Assembly: GCA_030615855.1 (NCBI GenBank)
Contig: JAUWYL010000014.1
Span: forward strand, 1-32,940
Direction: 5' to 3'
Length of the DNA stretch: 32,940 nt
Source of the DNA: a bacterium
Lineage (GTDB): Bacteria; UBP18; UBA7526
Shown: one piece after another, positions 4,759 through 32,940 of the stretch
How the letters are laid out: every line of letters starts with the position of its first letter
Numbering within the stretch: position 1 is the stretch's first letter
Made by a program: the position numbers and the translations under genes
Notes under the pieces: generated by a model
Database searches by the model: none
Told to the model about the DNA's origin: nothing
Seen by the model: only the letters and a program-made list of their open reading frames with translations

Positions 4759-4958
4759 TTCTTGTCCTCCTTCTGACCTAACCACGGTTAAATATAAAGT
4801 TAGCTACTTTTTTCATCTTCTTATCTTTTCTTACCCTTCTCTTCTAACTAAATTTTTATGCAGATTGGTACAGATTTTAATTCTAAATTTTAAATGCTTA
4901 GTATAAATTATTTTCATGTTTTATTCGTGAGTCGTGGCACGTCGCTCGTTACTCTCTG

Positions 4959-7900: not shown

Positions 7901-10499
7901 CCTGGGGCTTTCCTATCTCAGAAGAATGGCCGTGGATATAACCGGGAATGGAGACTCTCTGATAGGTGATCCCCTCCTCTATCTTCTCCTCTTCATCAAA
8001 TTCATCTGTGGTGAGTTCTAAGGTCACCCCGGTTTCATCAGATTCAATGATCTCTATCCCCTCTCCTTTAGCACTGGGACCTTCGGGCTCTGGGGGACGA
8101 GGAGGCGTGACTCCTTCTATATCTGGAACATAGGGATCGGTATCATTCAGGAACTCTTCATAGTTGGTGAAGCCATCATAATCCGGGTCAAGCCCTCCAT
8201 CATTTATATTAGGATTAAGACCATACCTCTCCTCCCAGCCATCTGGAATGCCATCATCATCAGAGTCTATTCCTGGAGTAGCCCAGACCGGCCCGTGCCT
8301 CTCCTTTCCACCAAAGAAGTCAACATCCTCCAACTTGTAATAATAGGTTTTTCCCGGGATGACATTTGGATCAGTATACCAATAGAGTCTGCCAACGATA
8401 GAGTATCCCAGTCCAGGGATGAGGGATGAATTCAACTTAGTATAAGGCCCATTCCTATTCTCGCTCCGATAGATATTGAAGCCCGCGTTGTTGTGCTCAC
8501 TGGCCGTCCTCCACCAGAGCCAGACCCCATCCTCATAGCCCAGAGCCTGAAAGCCTGTCAGGGTGACCAAAGTGGGGTTGCAGGGCCACCAAGCGGGAGC
8601 GGATGTACCTTCACCAAACCAGGCCGCCCCTATGTATACCTGGACGCTATTCCTTAACCTTATCTCTAAGCCTAAACTAGTTCCTGTCCCTGAATCGCCA
8701 TGATATCGGGCTAACTCAGACCACTCATTGAGAGTGGGGACCTCATAATACGCAGTATCTAGGCTGCCACCCGATTCTCTCATACCGAGACCTATATTCT
8801 CATGCTTACTATTGGTAGGTGGATCGCTCCAATCACCTGTTGCTATGGGATATACCCATATCTCCATACTGTAATTCCCCCCTGACCCTTGGCCGAGATT
8901 CACTTGTTTGAGGCCTACCGCAGTGCTGGAGTCATTGGCAGTACAGTTTGTAGAGTAATCAGTACCATAATCATCTACACAGGCCTCAGTTGAGCAGCGG
9001 GCGATATTACCCGTGGCACCTTCCCATTCCCAATAGTCGGGGGGAACTCCGGAGGTTCCTGATGACCAGTCCCTAAAGAATTCGTTCTTCAATAGATTAT
9101 CCGTGGTCGATTTCACTACTACCGTTGGAGAGCCGCTTGACAATGGTGTTAGTGTCCCTCCCGATCCCTTGCTCTTCATGGTAAATGTATATGTGCCCAC
9201 ATAGGCATCCTCGCCTGGTTCTGGACGAGCGCCAGCGGCGGGTCCTGCTTGATTCCCATACTCAACTATAAAGTAGTTGCCTGATACAAATGTTGTTAAT
9301 GGTACGGTTATTGTGTCGCCAGAGATATCCATGGTGCCGATAGTTCCGGTATTTGTTATGGTGCAGTATCCTGCGCCACTTGAATTATTCTTCTGAGGGT
9401 TTGTCCAATTACCGGGGATATCGATGGTTGACTGTCCACCCGATATGGTTGCTGTTGCGGTATAGGTGATGTTAAATGCATTGTAGTCCTGGCCGGCCAA
9501 GGTTGCCGCAACATCTGGATCAATGGTCCCAGTGCCAGATCCATCAGCAACAACGGGTCCCCAGCGGTAGAAATCTGTTTCCCCTTCTCCCCTCATGAGC
9601 CAGACATTGTTGTTATTAAAGGAGAGCCTTGAACCGCAGTAGTTACTCCCGTTGGCTAAAGTGAAGGGGAGATCGGTCAATGTCTCCCAGGAATTGCCAC
9701 TAATACTGAATCTCCAGAAACCCTTGGTTGCTCCTCCCTGAAGAGCATAGATATAATCGCTTCCGTCCCAGCATAAGGAACTTTCTTTACTAACTGCTGC
9801 TGAATCAATAGGAGCGTTCCAGGCGGAGGGAGTTCCCCAGTTGTTTCCACTTATTGAATAGCGATAAAATCCTGGGCCCTGTCCTCCCCCAGTAGCATAG
9901 ATGTAGTCTCCTCCTCCCCAGACAAGATCAGCGCCATTTCCGGCATTTACTGGCATACCAGCAAGTGTAGCCCAGGAACCTCCTTCAGATGATGCTCTAA
10001 AGTAGGTTCCAATGGTATTGTTTCCTGGGTGGGCAAAGACCATCCCACCACTATTCATGGCCATGGCTGTATTTCTCTTCAGGGCAAGGAAACTGGTTGC
10101 CGCTTCCCAGGTAGTATTCCCAATATTATAGCGGGACATCTGCTTATTGGTAGCAGCATTGGTTCCTTGTCCTCTGAGAACATAGATATTATCTCCCCCT
10201 CCCCAGCAGATTCCTGAGTTTCTATTTATGGGAGTAGCACCAGTGTAGGTGGAATCGCCCATCTGAGTCCAGGTATTATTTCCCGTATTATAGCGATAAA
10301 AGGCATTATTTGTACCACCGATCAAGACCCAGATATACTGGTTACTGTGAAACCCCACCAGTTGACCACCATTAAGCACAGCAGTGGAAACAGCGTTCAT
10401 GGAAGTCCACTGATTGGCAGCCAGAAGAGAGTCTGTAAAGAGAATAATTGGGGCTGCTATGGCTATTAAGAAAATTAAGAATTTTTGTATTTTTTTCAT
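4959..10499 (-). CDS. Secreted C25-family (gingipain-like) cysteine peptidase: N-terminal Kelch-like propeller, TSP3-like Ca-binding repeats, C25 propeptide, C25 catalytic domain, CFI-box-CTERM-like tail
   Basis: Signal peptide MKKIQKFLIFLIAIAAPIILF; 'GGGDYIYA..GG..GFYRYSISGNNW' repeats; DSDDDGIPDGWEERYGLNP; propeptide-like 'GKPQVP...PIQFNPV'; 'ADYIII...IYDEFNYG...YVLLVGDA...IGRLP'; catalytic-type VNYVGHG and NMTC; C-terminal 'LLGDPAL' then CPIASVAYG..FRD..L..YY. Confidence 0.88.
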   Translation of the reverse strand: MKKIQKFLIFLIAIAAPIILFTDSLLAANQWTSMNAVSTAVLNGGQLVGFHSNQYIWVLIGGTNNAFYRYNTGNNTWTQMGDSTYTGATPINRNSGICWGGGDNIYVLRGQGTNAATNKQMSRYNIGNTTWEAATSFLALKRNTAMAMNSGGMVFAHPGNNTIGTYFRASSEGGSWATLAGMPVNAGNGADLVWGGGDYIYATGGGQGPGFYRYSISGNNWGTPSAWNAPIDSAAVSKESSLCWDGSDYIYALQGGATKGFWRFSISGNSWETLTDLPFTLANGSNYCGSRLSFNNNNVWLMRGEGETDFYRWGPVVADGSGTGTIDPDVAATLAGQDYNAFNITYTATATISGGQSTIDIPGNWTNPQKNNSSGAGYCTITNTGTIGTMDISGDTITVPLTTFVSGNYFIVEYGNQAGPAAGARPEPGEDAYVGTYTFTMKSKGSGGTLTPLSSGSPTVVVKSTTDNLLKNEFFRDWSSGTSGVPPDYWEWEGATGNIARCSTEACVDDYGTDYSTNCTANDSSTAVGLKQVNLGQGSGGNYSMEIWVYPIATGDWSDPPTNSKHENIGLGMRESGGSLDTAYYEVPTLNEWSELARYHGDSGTGTSLGLEIRLRNSVQVYIGAAWFGEGTSAPAWWPCNPTLVTLTGFQALGYEDGVWLWWRTASEHNNAGFNIYRSENRNGPYTKLNSSLIPGLGYSIVGRLYWYTDPNVIPGKTYYYKLEDVDFFGGKERHGPVWATPGIDSDDDGIPDGWEERYGLNPNINDGGLDPDYDGFTNYEEFLNDTDPYVPDIEGVTPPRPPEPEGPSAKGEGIEIIESDETGVTLELTTDEFDEEEKIEEGITYQRVSIPGYIHGHSSEIGKPQVPMKGVLLGVPTDSSIEISILDSESTILPDYNLYPVPTQETKESGDIKYVEEIFTKDEIAYTSDAFYPDNLTELGFTGYMREQKVVQIKLYPIQFNPVTNELKFYKKIRVRLDFSEVSQLASSPVHRFTGSPIRSLFSTPAWADPSPSSLPAFTGPTYKLSLDYAYSESGLYQGVQEGIYKLTYDYLQANTDLELDSLDPRTFKIYDSQGNQIRIYVKGESDGTFHSDDYIEFYGKIEPTKYTSTNVYWLDSGGTNDGLRMTTKDGTPDSGTTPNSFLSTEHYERDQTYSYAVTGAASVDRWFFSQTAAKDSPGDYTITLTDPLHSPSGNAQIKAALYSFFDVTHHTILKINNNVVEDTTWSGVGERSIDKSIPQSDLQLQDGINTITVQVILDPGVENDEVYANWFEIDYWRDFKASNNSLSFNQDAGDHLFEISDFNTNFTNNDIEVFDITNDQKINNFDITDGTLSFKDNILATTEYLAQEPLTLPASAIEKYEDSGIRSPNNRADYIIITYDDFYNENDPDNPIIKLKNHRESQGLRVKVVKVSDIYDEFNYGIVSPQAIKYFLIYAYDNWTAPKPTYVLLVGDATYDYKNNRGEEQHHNYLPVYLSETEYMGETINENWFVCVNDDNDDGVVNDEDIVPDIYIGRLPVKTTDDKLGVIVNKIVDYENAAYTDTWERNILYVADDAKRIGELIFETTNDSVRNYPSSDYQLYKAYLSELGQSACRQAIIDTIKSGVLIVNYVGHGAWNLWADETIFHSSDISSLNNEEKLPFFINMTCEDGYFAYYAGYECLAEELLRAKDDEEKGIGAIATFSSTGITPCSGQKILNEGLFQAFFGGTTNIIGKAISQAKMSALANGYEDVADTFGLLGDPALGLKFPPGEDGHTHGHTCPIASVAYGTSMAEEVEVFRNFRDECLLTNKTGRAFVRFYYHHSSSISKFIEKKKALKPIIRAGLKPILWLAKRKTRPPHKYPIWE

Positions 10500-12856
10500 G
10501 CTTTCACTCTCCTTCCATTCATTACTTCTTCTTCAGTGACCTTTAGACTAATCTCTCTTTCTCCTACCTTTAACTTATAGGGCTCCTCAGATACTGTCTG
10601 ATAGGGACTATTCTCTGTGGCATAGGGGAGGATAACCTCAAACTCTCCTTTCTCATCAGCCTTTATCACATTTCTATAGAGGAACCTTCTTCCGGCATTA
10701 CTGATAAGGGGAAGGGAGATCTCTATCTCTTCCAAAGGATTAGTTCTTCCTCTATATCTTGCCCCCTTCACATATTCAAAGACTTTCATCCTGCTGGTAG
10801 AGCCCGGGCCACCAAAATAGGTGAAGTCTGAGTATTCTGGGGACTCATAGATAAGTCTATACTGGCTTACCCCCGGGATATCTAAGTCTGGAATGATGGG
10901 CTGGGAACCATCGTGGAGATGGAGGCAGTTCCCCATTAAAGAGAGATACTCTCCCTTGGGGATTCTGACTAAAGGACCATCATACTCTAACAGACGGTAG
11001 GCTTCTTCTGGATAACGGAGGCTGATCTTCCTCAAGGCTTCCACCAAAAGAAGGAGATCCTGGCTAATGACGAAGCGGCAATTTGATTTCTCCATCACCA
11101 TATTCGCTTCCTTTTCGTTTTTGGCTAAGAAGAAGTCGCACATTCGATCAACGCCCTTTCCATAGGGATTGACCGTTGCTGGCCTTTCGCTCAGATATTC
11201 AATGAAATGGCCCAGATCCCAAAAAGCCATTATACCATACTCTGGCTTAATTTCTAAATCGACATTGTTATAGGAACTGGTCTTTGGAGTATTCTCCTTT
11301 ATCCAGATATAGGTCTCATATTCGCCACGGGAGAGGAATGGTCTACTCATTCTAAATCCAGCATAGAGCATCTTAGAATGGCTAAAGAGGAAGATGAGGC
11401 CGATTAGGATGACAATCATCTGGGGCTTGAAGGTTAGTATTCCTTTTAAAAACTTGGGAAGTCGTTCTCGAAGAGCGAGAAATCTCTCTGAGACAATTCT
11501 TACTTCCACTATCTTACTAAACCTTCTTTCTTTCAGATAATCATAGCATTTAAAGAAGAGATAGCCAGTTAAGAGAGCGATGTTGGCTCCAAAGATATAA
11601 GCAAACCTCAACTTTGCCAAGGTTATCAGACAAAAAGAGATTGTCCAGATGAGGAGAAAGAGGACCCTTACCGGCTCCTTCCTTCTTGTAAAAAAGAGTA
11701 GGAGAAGGGCAATGGGAAAAAGGTAAAAAGCCCAGGAGAGTTGGAAGACGGCCCTTAATGGTGAGAAATTTTCGCCAAAGTAAAGCAGGGGTTGGTTCTC
11801 TCCAATGGTGGTAAGCCAGACATTCTCTGTCTTCGTTATCCAGGAGACTCCCTTAAAGAACAACCTTTGAAAATCAGGGAAGAATATCCGGGAGAAGACA
11901 AATATTAATCCCACGCTAAGTAGTGACGAAGAGAGGATAATTTTCGGAATACTTTGTATTCTCTTTTTAAGCATTCCAGAAAATATTCTCACTCCGACAA
12001 AGAAGAGAATGAGAAAGGAGAAAAGATATATCTGGAAGTAGGATAAGGCCTTCTGGTTGAGGAGGGCCCGCCTTCCCCACCAAGAGGTAAGACAGGGATA
12101 GAGAAGAAAGAGTAATGCTACCAAGGGAATAAGGATATAGAGGTTGAGCATTCTACCCAGGGATTCTTTATTGATAAAGAAGAGGGAGAGAAACATAACC
12201 GATATCACTGGAAAGAGATAGAGGGTGGTCCCTGACCAATTGAGATAGCTGAGATATATGGCAAAGCCGGTCAGAAAAGCCCAGAGATAGTTTTTTTGTC
12301 CAGTAGAGTCATTCTTCCTTCCTAGGGTCATGATGAAGAAATAGATAAAGAGCAAGGTAAAAAAGGTCTCCCCAACATGCTGGTCGACCTTGCCAAGCGT
12401 GGAATAGCTGAGGTGGCCGGGCTGAAGGGCAAAGAGGAATGCGGAGAGGATTCCCACCTTATGAGAAAAGAGTTCCTTTCCTATGAGCCAGACGAGAAAG
12501 ATGGTCAGGCTACCCATCAGAGGAGGAAACCAGGCAGCGACCCTCTCTGTAAGTTCCTTGGCAGGTGCCCCTCTACCAATGAGCAAAGCAGAAACAGAGA
12601 TTATTCTATCGAATAGATGGGGCCAGAAACTCACCTGGCCCTCAGGATAATTGAGATAGGGATCAAACCCCAGTACCTTCATAGAGTGATCGAGGGCATA
12701 GACTATCCTCCTCATATGGTAATAGGGGTCGGTATCAACGAAGATAACCTTTCCCTCAATGAAGACCTTGGAATAGAAAGGAATGGTGCGGAGGGAAAAG
12801 GCTAAAGCAAATATTCCGATTAGGATGAGAAACGAAATTATCCTGGTCTTATTCAT
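10496..12856 (-). CDS. STT3/AglB-like oligosaccharyltransferase (protein N-glycosylation)
   Basis: DTDPYYHMRRI, FDPYLNYPEG, DQHVGE, TIGENQPL, ~13 hydrophobic segments, WWDYG-position motif FWDLG, AglB-like C-terminus (KVFEYVKGA...PYATE). Start placed at 12856 (ATGA overlap with the GT2 stop) rather than 12904. Its stop overlaps the C25 gene start. Confidence 0.9.
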   Translation of the reverse strand: MNKTRIISFLILIGIFALAFSLRTIPFYSKVFIEGKVIFVDTDPYYHMRRIVYALDHSMKVLGFDPYLNYPEGQVSFWPHLFDRIISVSALLIGRGAPAKELTERVAAWFPPLMGSLTIFLVWLIGKELFSHKVGILSAFLFALQPGHLSYSTLGKVDQHVGETFFTLLFIYFFIMTLGRKNDSTGQKNYLWAFLTGFAIYLSYLNWSGTTLYLFPVISVMFLSLFFINKESLGRMLNLYILIPLVALLFLLYPCLTSWWGRRALLNQKALSYFQIYLFSFLILFFVGVRIFSGMLKKRIQSIPKIILSSSLLSVGLIFVFSRIFFPDFQRLFFKGVSWITKTENVWLTTIGENQPLLYFGENFSPLRAVFQLSWAFYLFPIALLLLFFTRRKEPVRVLFLLIWTISFCLITLAKLRFAYIFGANIALLTGYLFFKCYDYLKERRFSKIVEVRIVSERFLALRERLPKFLKGILTFKPQMIVILIGLIFLFSHSKMLYAGFRMSRPFLSRGEYETYIWIKENTPKTSSYNNVDLEIKPEYGIMAFWDLGHFIEYLSERPATVNPYGKGVDRMCDFFLAKNEKEANMVMEKSNCRFVISQDLLLLVEALRKISLRYPEEAYRLLEYDGPLVRIPKGEYLSLMGNCLHLHDGSQPIIPDLDIPGVSQYRLIYESPEYSDFTYFGGPGSTSRMKVFEYVKGARYRGRTNPLEEIEISLPLISNAGRRFLYRNVIKADEKGEFEVILPYATENSPYQTVSEEPYKLKVGEREISLKVTEEEVMNGRRVKA

Positions 12857-13545
12857 CTTTCTTTGCCTTTTAGGGGAATGAAACGATTCTTGATTAATGT
12901 CCATAGAGCAGGGAAGCCATCGCGCCAGGTGATCTTTTTTCCTCCCGAATATCTTCTACCCTGATAACTGATGGGAACCTCATAGATAGGGATATTATGG
13001 CGTAGGAGTTTTGCCGTTACTTCGGGTTCAAATTCAAATCCCTTTGCTTTCAAGTTTAGATTCTTTAATATCCTGGTCTTGAAGAGTTTATAACAGGTCT
13101 CCATATCAGTCAGATGGGAGCCATATAAAAGATTGGTAACCAAGGTTAAAAATCTATTCCCCCAGTAAAATAGGAAGAAGAAGTTTTTGGGCTCCCCTAA
13201 GAAACGGGAGCCATATATTACCTCTGCCTTGCCCTCTATAATAGGGGGGAGTAATTTAAGATAATCCTGGGGATTATACTCCAGATCAGCATCCTGAACA
13301 ATGACTAAATCTCCCTTCACCCTTTTTAACCCACTCCGAATAGCCATCCCTTTTCCTTGATTCTTTGAATGATAGATTACCTTGATCCTATTCTCTAAGT
13401 CCTTTAATATTTCTCTGGAACCATCTGTGGAATAATCATCAACGGCAATAATCTCCTTCTCAACGGGTACCTTCTCCACCTTCTCTATCAGTTTCAAGAG
13501 ATTCCGCCTCTCATTATAGACCGGGATGATAATCGATAATTTCAT
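12853..13545 (-). CDS. Glycosyltransferase family 2 (polyprenol-phosphate glycosyltransferase/DPM1-like)
   Basis: LSIIIPVYNE, VDDYSTDGS, NQGKGMA, QDADLEY, GSRF, DMETCYK, FEFEPEVT. Confidence 0.93.
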   Translation of the reverse strand: MKLSIIIPVYNERRNLLKLIEKVEKVPVEKEIIAVDDYSTDGSREILKDLENRIKVIYHSKNQGKGMAIRSGLKRVKGDLVIVQDADLEYNPQDYLKLLPPIIEGKAEVIYGSRFLGEPKNFFFLFYWGNRFLTLVTNLLYGSHLTDMETCYKLFKTRILKNLNLKAKGFEFEPEVTAKLLRHNIPIYEVPISYQGRRYSGGKKITWRDGFPALWTLIKNRFIPLKGKER

Positions 13546-14261: not shown

Positions 14262-14303
14262 ATTTTCCTCCCAGATAAGCCTCACTATCGTTCGGCAATT
14301 TCA

Positions 14304-14378
14304 CCCCGCACCTTTTAAATATTCAGAATTTCTTGAATACTTAAATAATGCCTTTATGAATGCTAAAAAGGTGCGGGG
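14304..14378. mobile_element. 75-bp miniature inverted-repeat element, CCCCGCACCTTTT...AAAAGGTGCGGGG
   Basis: 13-bp perfect terminal inverted repeat, AT-rich interior, left flank TTCA (right flank CAAG); same ends as 20189-20296. Confidence 0.7.
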
Positions 14379-14583
14379 CAAGCAGATTAGCACAGATTTG
14401 GAACACGGATTACAGGATGCGCTTCGCTGGCATCCTAGAGAGCATAAATAATTAAGCATTGACACTGATTTAATCTGCCTGTCCCGTAGCCTCCGACTTT
14501 AAGTCGGAGTGGTATGGGGTGCCCATCCGTGTAACTATTCAAGTTCCGATACGACAAAATCTTAGAACTAACAGTCAATTTTA

Positions 14584-14612
14584 ATTTTATCATAGAAAAA
14601 GCCATTTGTCAA
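14584..14612 (-). promoter_or_regulatory. Sigma70-type promoter upstream of the MerR-like gene
   Basis: TTGACA-17 bp-TAAAAT with extended -10 TG on the minus strand. Confidence 0.65.
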
Positions 14613-14824
14613 GTTCTAATTTGATTCCTGAAAAAGTCACGAATGCATACCCCGTAAAGTTGCTACGCATCAACGGGGCAGGCAGGCGCTTGAATCCCTT
14701 CTTTATATTATTGAAGTGCCAATGCTTTTAACTACACAAATCAATCGACGATCGTCGATCAATTTGTGCTCTCACAATTCAGTATGTGCACAGTTTTAGA
14801 GACGATCGTCTTGAAAAATGTGCG

Positions 14825-14854
14825 AAAAGGGGAGCGAGAATTTCTCGCTCCCCT
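14825..14854 (-). terminator. Intrinsic terminator
   Basis: Minus strand AGGGGAGCGAGAA-A-TTCTCGCTCCCCT followed by a T run, downstream of the 15185-15376 gene. Confidence 0.7.
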
Positions 14855-14970
14855 GATCGGCAATTACAGAGTAGGGAACTTCGCCTCAAGAAGTTAGCAT
14901 AATCCAACTATTCGGTTACGGTTATGATGCCCGCTTTTATCTTTCAGTAATGTAATACGGTTAGGGTTAC

Positions 14971-15004
14971 CCGTCCGCCGTAATAGTATTACTATGGAGG
15001 GCGG
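14971..15004. repeat. 34-bp hairpin element (CCGTCC.CCG..TAG.A.T.CTA.GGAGG..GG family)
   Basis: Colinear and same length as the copy at 29750-29783 inside mrdA. Confidence 0.7.
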
Positions 15005-15184
15005 GTGACGCCCGTTTTGTTGAAGTCGGAAAACAGTTGATGGAAACCTGAAAACGGTAGTGAAATCAGAAATCTGAAATCAGAATTTTCCCGTTTTTTA
15101 AATAGTGATACGGGTTTTCTACCTGCCGGCAGGCAGGCGTTACCGTAACCTTTGTTTACTTATCTCGCTCTGGTGTCTTTACAG

Positions 15185-15376
15185 TCACTTCTTCTCTAGT
15201 AGTTTCAGGGTTCCTAAGGCGATGGCGAATAGTAGGCAGACGCTGGAAAACTGGAGGAAGGCATGGGCCTCAACCCGGAGACCACCGAAGAAGGGCTGAA
15301 TCATTATTCGTGAGATAATCCCCAGAAGAGCACTTACTGCCGCCACAACAATAGCAATGATGGAAAGCGTTCTCAT
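15185..15376 (-). CDS. Small membrane protein (63 aa, two TM helices)
   Basis: Strong SD AGGAGGTGA before the ATG; two hydrophobic segments. Confidence 0.75.
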   Translation of the reverse strand: MRTLSIIAIVVAAVSALLGIISRIMIQPFFGGLRVEAHAFLQFSSVCLLFAIALGTLKLLEKK

Positions 15377-15618
15377 CTCTAATCACCTCCTTTTTAAAAC
15401 ACGGATTAGCACTGATTTTTATCACACTGATTAGATAACAAAATCAAATATTAAATATCAAAGATAAAAATGACATATTAAATATCAAAATTACAGATTA
15501 AAATTTTACATTTTGTCCGTCTCAGGCGGATCATTTTGATTTTTGCATTTTGATTTTTGATATTGTGACCTATTACTTGATACGGGCTTCCTGCCTGCCG
15601 GCAAGCAGGCGTTACTCG

Positions 15619-17889: not shown

Positions 17890-18142
17890 TTCTTTGTTCC
17901 TCCTTTTAGACACGGATTTTCTTGCTTTGCTTATTGTGTGAGAAAAATACCACGGATTAGCACGGATCAATTAATTAGTCGATAAGTTGAATAGTTAATA
18001 AGTTGACAAGTTGATAAGTATCACAGATTTGCACAGATTTATTACGGATTAGCACGGATCACAGATAAAGGTCATCCGGCAATCCGGTAATCAGGAACTA
18101 GGATATCCGGATAACCTGATAGCCTGATAACCTTATGTTATT

Positions 18143-18949: not shown

Positions 18950-19034
18950 AATAGACTCCTTTAATCAGGGTATCGGGTAATCGGGGTATCGGGTAATCAG
19001 GATATCATAAAGATTGCGATTTAACAATAATTTT

Positions 19035-20297: not shown

Positions 20298-20879
20298 TCA
20301 TAGGTATAGCCGGTGCTGATAGATGTATCTCTCCACCTTCTCTGGGAGAAGATACTTTATGGTCTCGCCCCTTTTCAGGCGCTTCCTGATATCTGTGGAT
20401 GAGATGGCCAAGGCAGGAACCTCGATTAAGCGGGTATGCCTCTCATATCTCGGGGGTAGTTTTCTTAGTTTAAAGCCCGGTCGGGAAGCAGCGATAAACT
20501 CGCACAAAGTGGGTAATTCCTTGGCCTTCTTCCACTTGGGCATCTGAGCGATGGCATCCGCTCCCGTGATAAAGAAGAGTTTCGTCTCTTTCCCAAACTT
20601 TTTCTTAAATTCTTTCATGGTATCCCGGGTGTATGACTTTCCCCTTCTCTTAATCTCAATATTGGATACTGAAAAATAGCCATTATTCTCTATGGCTAAT
20701 TTTGCCATCTTGTAGCGATGAGAGGAAGAGATTAAGTCTCTTCTCCCTTTATAGGGAGTGCGATAGGAGGGAACGAAGATCACCTTGTCCAACTTGAACT
20801 TATCCCTCACTACTTCTGCGGTCACCAGGTGGCCGTAGTGGATGGGGTTAAAGGTCCCGCCCATGATCCCAATGCGCAT
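20298..20879 (-). CDS. nadD: Nicotinate-nucleotide adenylyltransferase
   Basis: GGTFNPIHYGH, SYT..T, FITGADA, ISSTDIR. Confidence 0.97.
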   Translation of the reverse strand: MRIGIMGGTFNPIHYGHLVTAEVVRDKFKLDKVIFVPSYRTPYKGRRDLISSSHRYKMAKLAIENNGYFSVSNIEIKRRGKSYTRDTMKEFKKKFGKETKLFFITGADAIAQMPKWKKAKELPTLCEFIAASRPGFKLRKLPPRYERHTRLIEVPALAISSTDIRKRLKRGETIKYLLPEKVERYIYQHRLYL

Positions 20880-20894
20880 ATTTCACCTGCCAAG

Positions 20895-20935
20895 TTCAGG
20901 ATATCGGGTAATCAGGATATCGGGTAATCGGGTTA
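20895..20935. repeat. 8-bp tandem repeat arm (ATCRGGnn) downstream of the four-helix-bundle gene
   Basis: TCAGGATA TCGGGTAA TCAGGATA TCGGGTAA TCGGGTT; inverted relative to 21335-21377. Confidence 0.8.
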
Positions 20936-20950
20936 AAAACATGTAATGTA

Positions 20951-21322
20951 TTAATCGTCGCTATCCCGTTTTCTACGAATATATTTGATGTAGGCGTTAA
21001 TTCCTTTTATTAACTCCTCATATTCGTTGACTAAACGATCGCTACGTTCCTTATCAATATATTTCTTCCCTTCAAGTTTCCTTAAATGGTTTTGGGTCTC
21101 ACCTGCCTCTCTGCGTGCTGTATACATCCCTTTCATCTTATTATTGTAATAATAACTGGTGTAACCTTCGGCAATGTTATCAGGAACTGAAGAAGACGAC
21201 CTTTCTATTTGACTCCGATCCCTAAAGCGCTCATCTGAAGGTAATGATTTAGCAATGGTGTGAACCTCGAGCATCAATTTATGCGCCTGTTGCCAGATTC
21301 TTAGTTTTTCAAACCCCGCCAT
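20951..21322 (-). CDS. Four helix bundle protein (TIGR02436 / 23S rRNA IVP-like family)
   Basis: FEKLRIWQQAHKL...LPSDERF...SQIERSSSSVPDNIAEGY...ARREAGET. Confidence 0.9.
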   Translation of the reverse strand: MAGFEKLRIWQQAHKLMLEVHTIAKSLPSDERFRDRSQIERSSSSVPDNIAEGYTSYYYNNKMKGMYTARREAGETQNHLRKLEGKKYIDKERSDRLVNEYEELIKGINAYIKYIRRKRDSDD

Positions 21323-21334
21323 TTCTTACCTGTT

Positions 21335-21377
21335 CTCCTGATAACCTGATCCCCTGATCTCCCGATAACCCGATCCT
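21335..21377. repeat. 8-bp tandem repeat arm (CCYGATnn) upstream of the four-helix-bundle gene
   Basis: CCTGATAA CCTGATCC CCTGATCT CCCGATAA CCCGATCC. Confidence 0.8.
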
Positions 21378-22636
21378 CATTCTCTAACCTGTCCCTTCCC
21401 GTAGACTAAGTACTTATAAGTGGTGAGTTCCTCTAGGCCCATGGGCCCTCGAGCATGGAGCTTCTGGGTAGAGATCCCAATCTCGGCTCCCAGACCAAAC
21501 TCCCCACCATCATTGAGCCTGGTTGAGGCATTGACGAAGACCGCACTGGCATCGACCTCTTTCAAGAACCTCTCTGCCGCTCTCTTATTTCTGGTAATTA
21601 TGGCCTCTGAGTGGCCTGAGCCATACCTTGAGATATGGTTTAAGGCCTCAGCGAGGCCTTTTACTACCTTGATGGACAGGACCAAGTTCAGGTACTCTGT
21701 CTGCCAATCGATTTCGTTTGCTCTTTTAATTTGAGAAATAATCCTTTTGGTCTTGGGACAACCCCTCACCTCCACTCCTGCTTCTTTTAGTCTTTCGATT
21801 ATTCGGGGTAGAAACTTCTTGGCGATATCTTTATGAACCAAGAGGGTCTCAAGAGCATTACATACCCCTGGCCTCTGAACCTTGGCATTATAGACTATTT
21901 CCTCCGCCATGTCCAGATTAGCATCCCGGTCCACATAGGTATGGCATAACCCCTTGGCATGGGCGATGACCGGGATAGTGGATTCCCTTCGCACCATCTG
22001 GATGAGACCCTCTCCTCCCCGGGGGATGACGAGATCGATGTAGTCATCCAGCCTCAGTAATTCCTTTACCGCCTTTCGAGAAGTGGTCCCGATTAGTTGA
22101 ATGGCGTTTTCAGGAAGGCCTTTAGTTCCGTTCAAAATTTTGGTGATAATAAGGTTAGAGTTCTGGGCCTCGCTTCCTCCCTTTAGAATGATGGCGTTCC
22201 CGCTCTTGAAGGCCAGGCCACTGGCTTCTACCGTGACATTTGGCCGGGCCTCATAGATCATGGCGATTACCCCGATGGGAACCCTCACCTTCTTTATTAC
22301 TAGGCCATTGGGTCTTCTGGTGGTTCTCATTATCCTTCCCACGGGATCGGGAAGGGAGGCGACCTCTCTCAGGGATTTTGCCATATTCCTGATGCGTAAG
22401 AGAGTCAGAGTGAGGCGATCTATCAGGGCCTTGCTTAGACCTTTCTTCTTAGCCAGTTTAATATCCCTTTCGTTTGCTCTTAAAATTTCTTTCTTCCTCT
22501 TAAGGATTCCCCTTGCCATATTCTTTAGGATGCTATTCTTGACAGGGGTGGAAAGTCTGGCCAATTCTTCCGAGGCCCTCTTGGCCCTCTTGGCCATTCT
22601 TATCATCTCATTCTTAATATCCACCTTAACACCCAT
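21377..22636 (-). CDS. proA: Gamma-glutamyl phosphate reductase
   Basis: PIGVIAMIYEARPNVT, IPRGGEGLI, RPGVCNALETLL, NASTRLNDGGEFGLGAEIGISTQKLHARGPMGL. Confidence 0.98.
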   Translation of the reverse strand: MGVKVDIKNEMIRMAKRAKRASEELARLSTPVKNSILKNMARGILKRKKEILRANERDIKLAKKKGLSKALIDRLTLTLLRIRNMAKSLREVASLPDPVGRIMRTTRRPNGLVIKKVRVPIGVIAMIYEARPNVTVEASGLAFKSGNAIILKGGSEAQNSNLIITKILNGTKGLPENAIQLIGTTSRKAVKELLRLDDYIDLVIPRGGEGLIQMVRRESTIPVIAHAKGLCHTYVDRDANLDMAEEIVYNAKVQRPGVCNALETLLVHKDIAKKFLPRIIERLKEAGVEVRGCPKTKRIISQIKRANEIDWQTEYLNLVLSIKVVKGLAEALNHISRYGSGHSEAIITRNKRAAERFLKEVDASAVFVNASTRLNDGGEFGLGAEIGISTQKLHARGPMGLEELTTYKYLVYGKGQVRE

Positions 22637-22641
22637 ATAAG

Positions 22642-22914
22642 AAGTAACCAGTAACCAGTTTACAGCAAAAAGTAGAAGGATACCAGAAGATCAGAATATC
22701 AGTAGGAAGGATACCAGTACATCAGGATATCAGGAAAAATCTATTAAAGCCTGATATTCTGGTACCCTGATACTCTACCTACTGATTTGCTGATACCCTG
22801 ATATGCGTTTCATCTTGTTTGTAATTTGTTATTTGGAATTTAAACATTCTGGTTACTGTTCGTCCGCCCCAGAGGGGCGAGACCTCGCCTTCGGCGGGCT
22901 GGTTACTGTAAACT
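22642..22914. repeat. Nested palindromic composite element, copy A (proB-proA gap)
   Basis: Outer CAGTAAC/GTTACTG arms, inner ATCAG/CTGAT arms, GC-rich hairpin; homologous to 25653-26054. Confidence 0.8.
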
Positions 22915-22936
22915 CTCTGCCTTGCCCTCTAACTTG

Positions 22937-24046
22937 TTAAAGGATGACCAGATTATCTCTATGGATGATTTCATCGTAGTCCTTATAGCCCAGGATCTTT
23001 CTTATCTCTTGGGTCTTCTTTCCCTTTATTTCATCAATTTCATTTGAAGAGTAAGAGACTATTCCCCGGGCAAACTCTTCATCTTCTTCATCGATAACGC
23101 TCACCCCGTCTCCTATAGAGAACCTACCCTCGACCTCTCTGATTCCAGAGGGAAGGAGACTTTTGCCTCTTTTAGAAATGGCCTCCTTGGCCCCCTCGTC
23201 TATCTTTATCTTCCCCCTGAGGACGACTCCAAAAGCGATCCATCTCTTCCGCGACTTGAGCCTTTCCTTAGGGAGGAATAGGGTTCCCAGGCGCTCCCCA
23301 GCTAGGAGCCGGGAGATCGCGTTCTTTATCCTTCCATCAGCGATGACCATGGCCACCCCAGAGGAGCGGGCAATCTTGGCCGCCCGGAGTTTAGTTACCA
23401 TCCCACCCGTTCCCCTCAGGGTTCCCGAGCCAGAGGCCATCCTTTCTAACTGAGGGGTAATCTGGGACACCTCTTCTATGAACCTAGCCCCTCCTCCCCT
23501 CTTAGGGTCCGTGGTATATAATCCCTTAGTATCTGTTAGGATAATTAGTAGATCGGCCTCTACCTTACTGGCTACCAAGGCGGAGAGGGTATCGTTATCT
23601 CCAAACTTTATCTCATCTACTGCTACGGTATCGTTCTCGTTGACGATGGGGATGGCCTTGTAATTCAAGAGGGTTAAAAGGGTATTTCGGGCATTGAGGT
23701 ATCTCTCTCTATTTTGAATATCCTCTGAGGTTAATAGAACCTGGGCCACGAGGCAGCCCCTCTTCTTGAAGAGCCTCTCGTATATCCCCATCAAGAGATT
23801 CTGGCCGATGGCTGCCGCGGCTTGCTTCTGAGGCATGGTGGTGAGTTTCCTCAGGTTCAGCCTCCCCATTCCGCTGGCAATGGCACCAGAGGTGACGAGG
23901 ATGATTTCTCTATTCTTCTTCTGTAAAGAGGCTAGTTGATCTACGATCCCCTCCATCCTCTTCAGGTTCAGTCTATTCTTTTCTGTTAAGAGGCTGGAAC
24001 CCACCTTAACCACGATGCGCTTTGCTTTTGAGAAGTCTCTTTCCAT
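22937..24046 (-). CDS. proB: Glutamate 5-kinase with PUA domain
   Basis: VVKVGSSLL, VTSGAIASG, NENDTVAVDEIKFGDNDTLSA, GTGGMVTK, SLLPSGI, IHRDNL. Confidence 0.98.
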   Translation of the reverse strand: MERDFSKAKRIVVKVGSSLLTEKNRLNLKRMEGIVDQLASLQKKNREIILVTSGAIASGMGRLNLRKLTTMPQKQAAAAIGQNLLMGIYERLFKKRGCLVAQVLLTSEDIQNRERYLNARNTLLTLLNYKAIPIVNENDTVAVDEIKFGDNDTLSALVASKVEADLLIILTDTKGLYTTDPKRGGGARFIEEVSQITPQLERMASGSGTLRGTGGMVTKLRAAKIARSSGVAMVIADGRIKNAISRLLAGERLGTLFLPKERLKSRKRWIAFGVVLRGKIKIDEGAKEAISKRGKSLLPSGIREVEGRFSIGDGVSVIDEEDEEFARGIVSYSSNEIDEIKGKKTQEIRKILGYKDYDEIIHRDNLVIL

Positions 24047-24280: not shown

Positions 24281-25279
24281 TCACTTTCCCAGTATTTCCA
24301 GTCCTTCTGCTATTGCTTCCTTTAACTCTTCTGTTCCTTCTCCAGTTAAGGCGGAAATAGGATATACCTTATATCTCTGGTTTCTAAGCTCTTTTTGGAA
24401 CTGGGGGAAGTTCTCCCTGGCCTCCTTCAGATCCATCTTATTCGCCGCCACGATCTGAGGCCTCTCGAAGAGCAAGGGATCATGAGCTTTAAGCTCTTCA
24501 TTTATCGCCTGGAAGTTAAAGAGGGGAGGATTTTTTCCATAGCCAGTAAGATCGACAATGTGGATGAGGAGACTGGTTCTCTCTATGTGGCGCAGGAAGT
24601 CAACTCCCAGCCCCTTCCCTTTATGGGCCCCTTCAATGAGTCCTGGGATGTCAGCCAGGATGAATTCTCTTCCTTTAAAGGAGGCAACCCCCAGGTTGGG
24701 GGAGAGGGTGGTAAAGGGATAGGATGCGACCTTGGGCCGGGCACGGGTAAGAGAGGCCAAAAGGGTCGACTTCCCACTATTAGGGTAGCCGACCAATCCC
24801 ACATCTGCAATTAGTTTTAATTCTAATTCTAACTCCTTTTCCTCACCTGTCTGCCCTTCCTCGGCAAAGCGGGGGGCAGGGTCCCGAGAAGAAGCAAGGG
24901 AGGCATTTCCCTTTCCTCCCTTCCCTCCCTTAGTGATTAATATCTTCTGGCCCGGGTTTACCAGATCAGCGATGAGTTCTCTATTCTTTCTATTCCTTAT
25001 TACGGTTCCCGGGGGGACCCTAACGATTAAGTCCTCTCCCGCCTTTCCACTTTTTTTCTTTCCCTTACCATGGGCCCCGTTTCGTGCTCTATAGTGAGGA
25101 TGATAACGAAGGTCGATTAATGTCTTGAGCCTCTTATCTACCTCCAGGTAGATACTCCCTCCTCTTCCCCCATTTCCTCCATCCGGACCACCGCGGCGAT
25201 GTTTCTGGCGGGCAAAGGCGGTACAACCATTTCCTCCATTGCCTGCCCTAATAAAGATGTTTGCCCGATCAATGAACAT
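24281..25279 (-). CDS. obgE: GTPase ObgE/CgtA
   Basis: MFIDRA...GGPDGGNGGRGG, ADVGLVGYPNSGKSTL, YPFTTL.PNLG, DIPGLIEGA, NKMD. Confidence 0.97.
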   Translation of the reverse strand: MFIDRANIFIRAGNGGNGCTAFARQKHRRGGPDGGNGGRGGSIYLEVDKRLKTLIDLRYHPHYRARNGAHGKGKKKSGKAGEDLIVRVPPGTVIRNRKNRELIADLVNPGQKILITKGGKGGKGNASLASSRDPAPRFAEEGQTGEEKELELELKLIADVGLVGYPNSGKSTLLASLTRARPKVASYPFTTLSPNLGVASFKGREFILADIPGLIEGAHKGKGLGVDFLRHIERTSLLIHIVDLTGYGKNPPLFNFQAINEELKAHDPLLFERPQIVAANKMDLKEARENFPQFQKELRNQRYKVYPISALTGEGTEELKEAIAEGLEILGK

Positions 25280-25282
25280 GGT

Positions 25283-25358
25283 TCGGGATATCAGGTTATC
25301 GGGATATCAGGATATCTGAAGGTTCCCGATCACCCGATCCCCTGATTACCTGATCACC
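25283..25358. repeat. Empty inverted 8-bp repeat array of the same family as the arms flanking the gene at 20951-21322
   Basis: TCGGGATA TCAGGTTA TCGGGATA TCAGGATA...CCCGATCA CCCGATCC CCTGATTA CCTGATCA. Confidence 0.8.
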
Positions 25359-25363
25359 TACCT

Positions 25364-25630
25364 TTAGTGGGTCATCTTAAGAGAGGGATAGATAGAGACT
25401 CTCTTCCTCTCCCCGGCTCTCTCAAAGGAGACGAAACCATCTATCATGGCAAATAGGGTATCATCCCTTCCCAAGCCGACATTCAAACCCGGTCGAAATC
25501 TCGTCCCCCTCTGCCTGACAATGATGGCTCCTGCTCTTACCTTCTGGCCAGAGGAGGTCTTGATCCCCAATCTTTGGGAAGCGGAATCCCTTCCGTTCCT
25601 TGAGGAACCCATTCCCTTCTTATGTGCCAT
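25364..25630 (-). CDS. rpmA: 50S ribosomal protein L27
   Basis: [22 protein letters not shown]...IIVRQRGT...G.DDTLFA. Confidence 0.98.
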
Positions 25631-26107: not shown

Positions 26108-26425
26108 TCAAGGCGTCCTTATAATTTCCTTGATGAGCAATGCAGTATATTCCTGGCGATGCCCGGCCTTTCTTCTGTATCCCTTCCTCTTCTTGAACTT
26201 ACCGATCACTATCTTCTTCTCCCTCCCCTGCTCCTTCACCTCTGCAATAACCTTTGCTCCAGAGAGAAGGGGCCTTCCCACCAGGACCTGATCCTCATCC
26301 TTGATCAGTAGGACTTCCTTTAGCTCTATCTTCTCTCTCACTTTGGAGTCTATTCTTTCTGTGCGGATAGTATCCCCGACCTCTATTTTATACTGCTTGC
26401 TTCCGCTTTGGATTATGGCGTACAT
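26108..26425 (-). CDS. rplU: 50S ribosomal protein L21
   Basis: MYAIIQSGSKQYKI...KFKKRKGYRRKAGHRQEYT; ATG at 26425 with GGAG upstream. Confidence 0.97.
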   Translation of the reverse strand: MYAIIQSGSKQYKIEVGDTIRTERIDSKVREKIELKEVLLIKDEDQVLVGRPLLSGAKVIAEVKEQGREKKIVIGKFKKRKGYRRKAGHRQEYTALLIKEIIRTP

Positions 26426-26542
26426 ATCGTTCTCCAATTACTCTATTTTATTTCAATAAAAGAGTCAACTTGTTTGGCTCATTTTAAGGTACCGAAATTT
26501 CAATAAAACAAGGTTCTTGTGAAGCGAGGTTTTTATTTGTTA

Positions 26543-31075: not shown

Positions 31076-31423
31076 GGGCTTACTAGACGCGGATACTCAA
31101 CGTACTTTCCCGCTTCTAGCGGGACCCCGCCATTCGGCGGTGGCGTTTGCCTTGAGGAGTAACCGCTGATAATAAGGAAGCCTCCCCGATTCATCGGGGA
31201 GAACCTTGTTATTCGGGCTTCTTTAGTAGAGGGGGCAAGCAAATGCGCGCCCTTATAATAAAGATGCCTTCGCTTTGCGAAGAACTTTGTTATTCCTCCG
31301 CATCTTTAGTAGACGAGGCAAGCGAAGCGCGTCGTCATAATAAAGACGCCTTCGCTTCGCGAAGAACTTTGTTATGCCAGCGCGTCTTTATTAGACAGGG
31401 CAAGTGAAACGCACTGTCATAAT
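31076..31423. repeat. Tandem array of ~81-82-bp double-hairpin units (about 4 units) between mreB and mreC
   Basis: AGAAC(C/T)TTGTTAT recurs at 31200, 31281 and 31363; conserved TCTTTA(G/T)TAGA and ATAATAAAGA(C/T)GCCT blocks with variable hairpin tips. Confidence 0.8.
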
Positions 31424-32530: not shown

Positions 32531-32586
32531 CTTACAACCTCCTTTCAGGTAGGTATTAGTTAACAGTAACCAGTTTACAGTAAAAA

Positions 32587-32940
32587 TTACAAAGAATTGA
32601 TTAGCCCAGTAATCATACTGGTAATCTCTCGACCATCCTTACGTAGGTCTTTAAATACTGCTTTATCAATAAGCGATTGCCTGATTAAGACATTGAATAC
32701 AGAAATACATTCCCTCGTGGAATCTAAAGAAATTCCAAAGTAACGAGCCTTCTCTTTCTTTGATATTTTGCCACTTCCCTCTGCCAGATTGTTTGCAATA
32801 GATAAACCGGCTCTTAAAAGATTATTGCCTATGGAATATTTAAATTCTTTTGGTAGTTTTCTATACACCTCAAAGATTTTATCTATAAACTTTAGGGCAA
32901 ATTGGTAGACCTTTAGCCTTTCAAAATCAAACTGAAAATC
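32587..32940 (-). CDS. Four helix bundle protein (TIGR02436-like), 5' end outside window
   Basis: Frame is open to the edge: [18 protein letters not shown]...LPKEFKY...[16 protein letters not shown]...STREC. Confidence 0.88.

Follow-up and report, generated by a model that had tools for sequence, protein, structure and literature searches.

A four-helix-bundle gene enclosed by inverted octamer arrays in a bacterial proA-nadD gap is a probable intervening-sequence-type cassette

Introduction

Two old puzzles of bacterial genomics – the multicopy four-helix-bundle (4HB, or 'S23p') proteins of unknown function, and the short tandem arrays that fill intergenic gaps – meet in a 32,940-nucleotide (nt) stretch of DNA from a bacterium of GTDB lineage UBP18 (UBA7526; contig JAUWYL010000014.1 of assembly GCA_030615855.1), analysed here at its full length and referred to as the window. 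Between proA and nadD the window carries a small 4HB gene, 4HB-1, enclosed on both sides by arrays of the 8-nt unit ATCRGGNN, the second array being the inverse of the first. Here, we describe this locus and compare it with plasmid loci chosen by their 4HB gene and with genomic loci chosen by their arrays. Positions 20895-21376 are probably (at roughly 60%) a single inserted unit, a selfish cassette of the type of the ribosomal RNA intervening sequences (IVSs), composed of a purine-rich 8-nt array, a 4HB (S23p/Avd-like) open reading frame (ORF), and a complementary pyrimidine-rich array.

Organization of the proA-nadD locus

All of the genes in the window are on the minus strand, and scans against Pfam and NCBIfam place 4HB-1 in a string with the order rplU, rpmA, obg, proB, proA, 4HB-1, nadD. 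The cassette and its two neighbours, in the order of transcription, are:

21377-22636, minus strand: proA, upstream host gene (NF001221, 7e-184)
21329-21376, minus strand: cassette 5′ arm on the mRNA, six ATCRGGNN units, C-type on the plus strand (pattern call)
20951-21322, minus strand: 4HB-1, encoding a 123-aa 4HB protein (PF05635 / TIGR02436)
20895-20932, minus strand: cassette 3′ arm on the mRNA, five NNCCYGAT units, G-type on the plus strand (complementary to the 5′ arm)
20298-20879, minus strand: nadD, downstream host gene (NF000840, 2.6e-75)

Arrays were called as three or more ATCRGG units with a period of 8, those reading ATCRGGNN on the plus strand being designated G-type and their complements C-type. 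A first-pass annotation of the window, made from the sequence alone, had reported a 4HB gene in the proA-nadD gap between inverted ATCRGGNN arms, and the pattern call confirms both arms, at 20895-20932 and 21329-21374. The 5′ arm begins immediately past the proA stop codon, is purine-rich, and contains the Shine-Dalgarno (SD)-like motifs AGGAG and GGGAG; at the other end, the 4HB-1 stop codon is followed by 18 nt, the 3′ arm, and then nadD's own AGGTGA Shine-Dalgarno sequence and ATG. We considered whether the insertion had altered the C-terminus of ProA and rejected this, as the C-terminus is unchanged relative to its relatives. The closer relatives of ProA share 75-88% identity with it, the nearest named relative is from candidate division NPL-UPA2 (63-64% identity), and by its ProA relatives the host is non-cyanobacterial. 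Because the cassette lies in the sense orientation within the rplU-rpmA-obg-proB-proA-nadD string, it is expected to be transcribed by read-through.

Predicted pairing of the arms

In a 521-nt sense RNA, the two arms around 4HB-1 form a duplex in the minimum free energy fold and again in the centroid fold (z -3.7), and 0 of 100 shuffled sequences fold as well. The 60-nt flanks of 4HB-1 have a predicted duplex energy of -50.6 kcal/mol, which ranks first of 20 among the window ORFs of 90-200 aa. The folds and the flank duplexes thus both predict the pairing of arms in the mRNA that had been proposed on first reading.

The four-helix-bundle protein

The 4HB-1 product is a full-length member of PF05635, scoring 98.5 bits (3.1e-28) against a family cut-off of 33.8, and of TIGR02436, scoring 101.4 bits against a cut-off of 24. 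A four-helix AlphaFold2 model of the protein, with a pLDDT of 95.1, resembles in Foldseek searches the pentameric XCC0516 (2gsc; E 1.4e-5, TM 0.84), BT_0352 (2rld; TM 0.79), the Avd protein of diversity-generating retroelements (DGRs) (4dwl; TM 0.78), and also ribonucleoprotein chains of the 8ub* entries, so that both the TIGR02436 membership and the relatedness to Avd given in the first-pass annotation hold. A second 4HB gene in the window, 4HB-2, passes both family cut-offs as well (PF05635, 87.9 bits; TIGR02436, 84.8 bits), and its product shares 28% identity with that of 4HB-1 over 50 aa. PADLOC returned no match for either protein, and a tblastn search of phages with 4HB-1 was likewise without a match.

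Homologues of 4HB-1 at 59-73% identity are named from Nitrospirota, Phycisphaerae, Omnitrophica, Patescibacteria, Margulisiibacteriota, and Planctomycetota. ProA drops to 63% identity outside the source clade, as compared with 59-73% for the 4HB-1 homologues across at least six phyla, and this retention of 4HB-1 identity across phyla while that of ProA falls fits a horizontal spread of the cassette gene.

Four-helix-bundle loci on plasmids

A sample centred on the 4HB gene, and blind to arrays, was drawn by searching plasmids with 4HB-1 (tblastn), which returned 34 records, mostly from cyanobacteria; 14 were taken, of which the 12 whose 4HB coding sequence is annotated were inspected. Eight of the 12 have a purine-rich array upstream of the gene and its complement downstream, with units that depend on the lineage (GGAGATNN, AGTCAGG, AAGGTTYA, and GGCAGAA), and another two have arrays in direct orientation. 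Among the eight, three (L124, L130, and L131) are homologous Nostoc plasmid sites, and the Aulosira locus (L133) carries the same cassette in another gene context. Both neighbouring genes are co-directional with the 4HB gene at nine of the 12 loci, in keeping with the earlier suggestion that such units occupy gene strings in the sense orientation; at one locus the upstream neighbour alone is annotated, and at two the orientation is opposite. The gene strings include CRISPR-associated ones, with 4HB cassettes situated between cas6 and cas4 in Pseudanabaena (L125) and between cas10 and cmr3 in Picosynechococcus (L129/L138).

Four 50-kb plasmid stretches, each with a single 4HB gene, were searched for repeats with Tandem Repeats Finder (TRF). 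All four of the rows with a period of 7 or 8 and a score of at least 40 lie within 60 nt of the 4HB gene, as do six of the eight period-7/8 rows when the score threshold is set at 36 or more; two 21-nt arrays and one 14-nt array are located away from the gene. Flank complementarity of the 4HB gene ranks 1/18, 1/36, and 2/40 in three of the stretches. In the fourth it ranks 34/63 when the ORF start used by the scan is 60 nt upstream of the annotated start, and with the annotated start the flanks form a predicted duplex of -70.4 kcal/mol, compared with -43.1 for the best other ORF. In 50 kb of plasmid pNPUN01 of the array-rich Nostoc punctiforme, the strongest heptamer arrays again flank the 4HB gene.

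Gain, loss and relocation of the gene with its arms

Related replicons with and without the cassette are available among the cyanobacteria. Picosynechococcus PCC 7003 has cas10-4HB-cmr3, and in PCC 7002 (89.5% identity) just 12 nt separate cas10 from cmr3 and arms are absent. Among the homologous records listed for Nostoc and related plasmids, six have the 4HB cassette and nine do not, and at the three empty Nostoc-type sites that were read the spacer is 3 nt long and arms are lacking. Arms are thus absent from every empty orthologous site examined (PCC 7002 and the three Nostoc-type sites). The filled alleles vary in arm length, with 5 versus 8 heptamers, and comparison of a filled Nostoc allele (L131:1403-1420) with L142:1118-1135 shows that the upstream gene ends in five codons that encode the same residues (DSFRF) in both and that, through five base changes in the filled allele, resemble arm units there.

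The cassette is also found in different places. One cassette, with 78-81% identity among its copies, occupies three unrelated gene contexts – one in N. punctiforme, one in Aulosira, and one in Trichormus together with Scytonema – and on either side the alignment of the relocated cassette breaks off within the arm. Arms and gene are therefore present or absent together, and in unrelated contexts, in these lineages, and the filled and empty sites together with the three contexts of one cassette show that the arms and the gene insert as a single unit in cyanobacterial plasmids. The comparison of filled and empty sites that the first-pass annotation had suggested accordingly reveals a real polymorphism, in PCC 7003 versus PCC 7002 and in the Nostoc plasmids, which lie outside the lineage of the window. 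Its further view, that the cargo-less pairs of the window are empty cassette sites, is not supported; the orthologous empty sites that we see have no arms.

The cas10-cmr3 gap of Synechocystis PCC 7338 contains a Uma2 gene without arms. In N. punctiforme the heptamer ATTCTAA is present at both cassette borders and is a possible target-site duplication, although it resembles an arm unit.

Other arrays in the window

The window has further arrays related to the cassette arms, together with the second 4HB gene:

25282-25354, strand not assigned: cargo-less hairpin of ATCRGGNN units, G then C (25282-25311 / 25325-25354), between rpmA (L27) and obg
18074-18136, strand not assigned: cargo-less hairpin of the ATCCGG/ATCAGG variant, G then C (18074-18095 / 18107-18136), between AAA_22 and beta-helix genes
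18964-19001, strand not assigned: solitary array of five units, partner absent nearby (pattern call)
22637-22936, strand not assigned: nested hairpin in the proB-proA gap, with inner arms of ATCAG/ACCAG type and outer arms of CAGTAAC type
32559-32586, minus strand: 3′ arm of a second cassette, a CTGTAAACTGGTTACTG array on the mRNA, abutting 4HB-2; the expected 5′ partner is beyond the window
32587-32940, minus strand: 4HB-2, second PF05635 gene (PF05635, 6e-25), its 5′ end cut by the window end

The two gene-less back-to-back pairs, the lone array, and the second 4HB gene with an arm of a different kind had all been picked out on first reading and are recovered here. Several unit families are represented among the window arrays, many of them as nested inverted pairs, and the CTGTAAACTGGTTACTG family that abuts 4HB-2 also supplies the outer arms in two other gaps, proA-proB and L27-L21. 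The two-unit pattern ATCRGGNNATCRGG, allowing at most one mismatch, has 27 matches in the window against 0.85 expected, and the maximum in 100 shuffles was 4, so that 27 was reached by none. Both cargo-less pairs are predicted to fold as hairpins of 6-bp blocks split by small internal loops, at -35.9 kcal/mol for 25282-25354 (z -3.0, with 3 of 200 shuffles as good) and -29.6 kcal/mol for 18074-18136 (z -4.5, with 0 of 200 shuffles as good). No intrinsic terminators coincide with the hairpins.

ATCRGGNN arrays in other genomes

A scan with four ATCRGGNN units, using one genome per species, identified at least 122 loci, 80 of which have 10-kb flanks; the overlapping locus L036 was left out, giving 79 flanked loci (1.18 Mb) and 121 loci for the analysis of polarity. 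4HB genes were sought in the flanked loci with an iterated local hidden Markov model. A narrow start model, built on the 4HB-1 subfamily alone, gave 4 matches; with iteration, there are eight ORFs at 1.8e-20 or lower, the candidate after them having an E of 0.88. The 79 flanked loci contain six 4HB ORFs, all of them confirmed by Pfam, and three of the six have an ATCRGGNN array no more than 50 nt away, versus 6.1% expected (binomial P = 0.004).

In a member of the Terriglobales (L006), an array, a 4HB gene, and an inverted array reproduce the exact architecture of the window. Sphingosinicella (L039) has an array upstream of the 4HB gene and a decayed complement downstream, and a member of the Bdellovibrionales (L015) has two 4HB paralogues with GGCAATCN arrays on their flanks, the homology shared by the paralogues taking in the 5′ leader and the ORF and fading within the arrays. 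Across the two samples, 4HB genes preceded by a purine-rich array and mostly followed by the complementary one thus come from Terriglobales, Sphingosinicella, Bdellovibrionales, cyanobacteria, and Riemerella.

Among the matches listed, ATCRGGNN arrays span many phyla, chiefly Acidobacteriota, and are commonly arranged as back-to-back pairs. The NN positions are TA, AT, or TT in the window units, and TG is the commonest elsewhere (283 units at the loci listed); in the listed arrays, which are mostly acidobacterial, the commonest unit is GGGTGATC. The heptamer GGTGATC is, we presume, the complement of GAUCACC, a conserved segment of the 16S rRNA 3′ tail, and the G arms may thus be extended Shine-Dalgarno arrays and the C arms mimics of the rRNA tail, an idea that the TA, AT, and TT of the window fit less well.

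On another account, 4HB would be an ordinary, useful host gene of the obg/nadD neighbourhood and the arrays no more than its translational control, with SD-like units masked by anti-SD-like units. The upstream arm does have GGAG/AGGA motifs next to the start codon, a Patescibacteria contig has a 4HB gene immediately before obg, and Table 5 of PMC5524665 gives the order gmk-4HB-nadD for Flavobacterium columnare, in which 4HB is directly upstream of nadD as it is in the window. We nonetheless hold this account to be highly improbable, given that cas operons, operons of conjugative plasmids, and rRNA genes harbour members of the 4HB family too, so that the family has no constant partner, and that the presence of the gene varies between close strains.

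The obg-nadD gap itself provides a view of how arrays change. At L024:1518-1864, L072:1294-1507, and L076:10001-10030 its content ranges from 4 units through a small hairpin to a very large one (>25 + 9 units). We rejected treating these as three independent matches because their near-identical flanks identify them as one orthologous site in related genomes, and the three array sizes at this one site imply growth in place. L024 is labelled Thermoleophilia, yet its flanks are near-identical to those of the Terriglobia contig L072, and the label or the bin may be wrong. No functional theme was found beside the arrays among the 71 of 141 flank ORFs scanned, the genes being ordinary and diverse.

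Some arrays are located within genes. An ATCRGGNN array is in frame within the Obg of a Patescibacteria contig (L005:5311-5372), adding 19 aa relative to the Obg of the window, and in-frame arrays or arm pairs occur in the linker of an ABC transporter (L049:3881-3982), an ImuB-like protein (L047:11433-11930), and an aminotransferase (L078:10001-10030). The Sphingosinicella metagenome-assembled genome has, at L039:290-385, 1883-1978, and 5617-5718, 13.7 copies of GTCCCCA and inverted pairs of the heptamers GGGTTTC/GAAACCC; GTCCCCA is, we assume, the unit of the cyanobacterial STRR1 repeat.

Arrays without the gene, and alternative accounts

A number of observations weigh against the interpretation of 20895-21376 as an inserted unit. 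TRF arrays with a period of 7-9 or multiples thereof are present in 13 of the 16 intergenic gaps of the window, so that adjacency of an array to a 4HB gene is expected there by chance and the window alone proves no link. All but about 4 of the 148 arrays in the flanked loci are without a 4HB gene, and 4 of the 5 heptamer clusters in the 50 kb of pNPUN01 are cargo-less, as in the window. Conversely, two of the 12 plasmid 4HB loci have no arms, and a 177-aa PF05635 relative from the Patescibacteria (candidate phyla radiation, CPR; L005:4003-4533) is situated between tRNA-gene-like sequences with no arrays. At L091:99-416 the G and C arms enclose a different ORF, on the reverse strand, encoding a putative HicB-like antitoxin. 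No target-site duplication is evident at the borders of the window cassette, of L006, or of the Picosynechococcus cassette. Finally, the first-pass annotation had asked whether arm type tracks the phylogeny of the 4HB protein, and a comparison of the two (with row L015b left out) rejects this. Arm type follows the host genome, including its NN usage, rather than the protein tree, from which we infer that the arms are remade or homogenised locally.

Two of the earlier proposals stand in part. The mobile unit is supported insofar as arms and cargo behave as one inserted unit in other lineages, with filled and empty sites and three contexts, and is weakened by most arrays having no 4HB gene. The arms are commoner beside 4HB genes in the array-poor plasmids, where this is true of all four strong TRF rows; in the window, with most gaps filled, adjacency proves little.

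Much of this would be expected if the arrays were a genome-wide intergenic hairpin family, similar to the short tandemly repeated repetitive (STRR) or repetitive extragenic palindromic (REP) sequences, with the 4HB gene having merely landed, or been retained, in one of the loops. The filling of window gaps, the large excess of cargo-less over filled pairs, the genome-specific NN flavour of the arms (TA/AT/TT in the window and TG most commonly at the other listed loci), their indifference to the 4HB protein tree, and the growth in place at the obg-nadD gap of related genomes are all points in its favour. It fares less well on the plasmids, since in those that are array-poor the sole strong 7/8-nt arrays abut the 4HB gene, the empty orthologous sites have no hairpin, and the homology between cassettes in different contexts takes in the arms; we regard it as possible, though unlikely.

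The polarity of the pairs bears on a third alternative. Adjacent arrays up to 600 nt apart have a fixed polarity, the order being G then C in 48 cases and C then G in 3 (121 listed loci), and since both strands show this pair order, it is with respect to the hairpin centre that the units are oriented. Cargo-less pairs thus share the order and polarity of the cassette arms, and could serve as landing pads, such that a cassette without an enzyme of its own would move by homologous recombination between the arms of a filled site and those of a cargo-less hairpin, also for DNA arriving from other species. The occurrence of the ATCRGGNN unit in many phyla among the matches listed, the match of the arms to the host genome's own arrays, and the presence of other cargo (the putative HicB-like ORF) between the L091 arms are in line with such a route. 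We think it improbable, as the arms are merely 30-50 nt long and imperfect, the empty sites seen in cyanobacterial plasmids have no arms, and no filled/empty pair was found at a hairpin site.

Other features of the window

The remaining genes of the string that contains the cassette are:

26108-26437, minus strand: rplU (L21)
25364-25630, minus strand: rpmA (L27)
24281-25279, minus strand: obg
22937-24046, minus strand: proB

No rRNA was detected, with no Rfam model at gathering score anywhere in the window. A 1.3-kb gap at 14286-15618 has GC-rich palindromes of the GCCTGCCGGCAGGC type and several 7-nt arrays, and includes a 63-aa ORF (15185-15376, minus strand) preceded by a strong AGGAGG. 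In the mreC-mreB gap (31220-31423), an 82-nt GC-rich palindromic unit is present in 2.5 tandem copies, unlike the short-period arrays. At the other end of the window (1-13545), a bacterial AglB/STT3 oligosaccharyltransferase and a GT2 enzyme adjoin a C25 peptidase of the gingipain type (1846 aa) and a protein of >1595 aa with GLUG repeats.

Discussion

We favour the interpretation that the proA-nadD cassette is an inserted unit of the IVS type. In the read-through transcript its arms would close into an interrupted stem of roughly 40 bp, made of 6-bp blocks and 2x2 loops, and this stem would sequester the Shine-Dalgarno-like units of the cassette. By analogy with the IVS of Coxiella, RNase III may cut the stem, releasing the cassette RNA and leaving the proA and nadD messages usable. 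Arms built from repeats would be favoured because slippage could change their length without losing register. The cargo-less hairpins would be the ORF-less counterpart, and may arise by themselves through local expansion, be derivatives of cassettes, or act as landing pads.

A broader proposal, which is speculative and which we consider doubtful, is that PF05635 cassettes with short-period inverted arms constitute a pan-bacterial class of tiny mobile elements, of which the 23S rRNA IVSs are only the rRNA-resident subset. An Avd-like pentamer would act on the arm hairpin, as RNA or as single-stranded DNA, so as to copy or maintain the cassette, for example through retro-homing that uses a trans-acting reverse transcriptase, and the cargo-less STRR-type hairpins of cyanobacteria, acidobacteria, and the window genome, even those in frame inside genes, would be non-autonomous derivatives or landing pads. 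Were this true, it would provide a function for both the 4HB family and the STRR arrays.

If IVS-like cassettes do also inhabit mRNA operons, then the rRNA IVS is one habitat of a wider element. The reported operon links between 4HB genes and CRISPR systems, including the naming of 23S_rRNA_IVP with CRISPR-associated domains in a PMC10910872 figure legend, may then reflect cassette insertion at cas10-cmr3 and cas6-cas4. The filled and empty strain pair PCC 7003 / PCC 7002 would then be a tractable system for studying both processing and mobility.

Comparison with known systems

The cassette and hairpins resemble miniature inverted-repeat transposable elements (MITEs) in being small, transposase-less, and palindromic, with terminal inverted repeats and many intergenic copies, and the cyanobacterial cassettes have in addition the presence/absence polymorphism and unrelated contexts of a transposon or MITE. 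They have no clear target duplication, and they differ from both MITEs and Rickettsia palindromic elements in that the arms are microsatellite-like with a variable number of units and that some copies carry an ORF. The Rickettsia palindromic elements are small, palindromic, and located in frame inside genes, which the in-frame ATCRGGNN arrays resemble.

The 4HB-1 model shares the fold of Avd (4dwl, TM 0.78), and Avd is a positively charged pentamer that, according to a preprint (bioRxiv 10.1101/2023.10.23.563531), binds the DGR spacer RNA at stem-loops. 4HB-1 is not itself a DGR Avd: the equivalog NF033474 is not reached (20.9 bits for 4HB-2 against a cut-off of 80, and no match for 4HB-1), and the 24 window ORFs scanned include neither a reverse transcriptase nor a template or variable repeat.

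STRRs are heptamer arrays of cyanobacteria. The window arrays are similar to them in being intergenic and of short period and in often forming inverted pairs, and the 4HB cassettes of Nostoc, Aulosira, Trichormus, and Scytonema have heptamer arms of STRR style. The window cassette differs in that its units are octamers and its host is non-cyanobacterial, although some other gaps of the window do contain 7-nt arrays. In the open literature, with subscription journals outside the search, we found no paper linking STRR arrays to 4HB genes, nor one linking 4HB genes to flanking repeat arrays outside of IVSs.

The closest known relatives are the ORF-bearing 23S rRNA IVSs of Coxiella burnetii and Leptospira, whose ORF also belongs to PF05635. 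The authors of PMC4990558 describe the Coxiella IVS as encoding an S23p ORF of the 4HB family within a 28-bp terminal stem, with GACAGAT heptamers, two or three in tandem depending on the strain, ahead of the ORF, and report that RNase III excision within the stem was shown; the analogy with rRNA IVSs drawn on first reading is thus an apt one. In CPR bacteria, PF05635 ORFs are found in 16S and 23S insertions beside ORF-less forms, according to PMC11270868, and the window similarly has cargo-less pairs beside its cassette. Like an IVS, the window cassette has terminal inverted repeats that are predicted to pair and that enclose an S23p-family ORF, short purine-rich tandem repeats (six 8-nt units) just before that ORF, and, as its orientation suggests, read-through transcription of the host unit. 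Unlike an IVS, its arms consist almost wholly of 8-nt units, and it lies between protein-coding genes rather than in helix 25 or 45 of 23S rRNA. The cassette of the proA-nadD gap therefore has every structural feature of an IVS except for location in rRNA.

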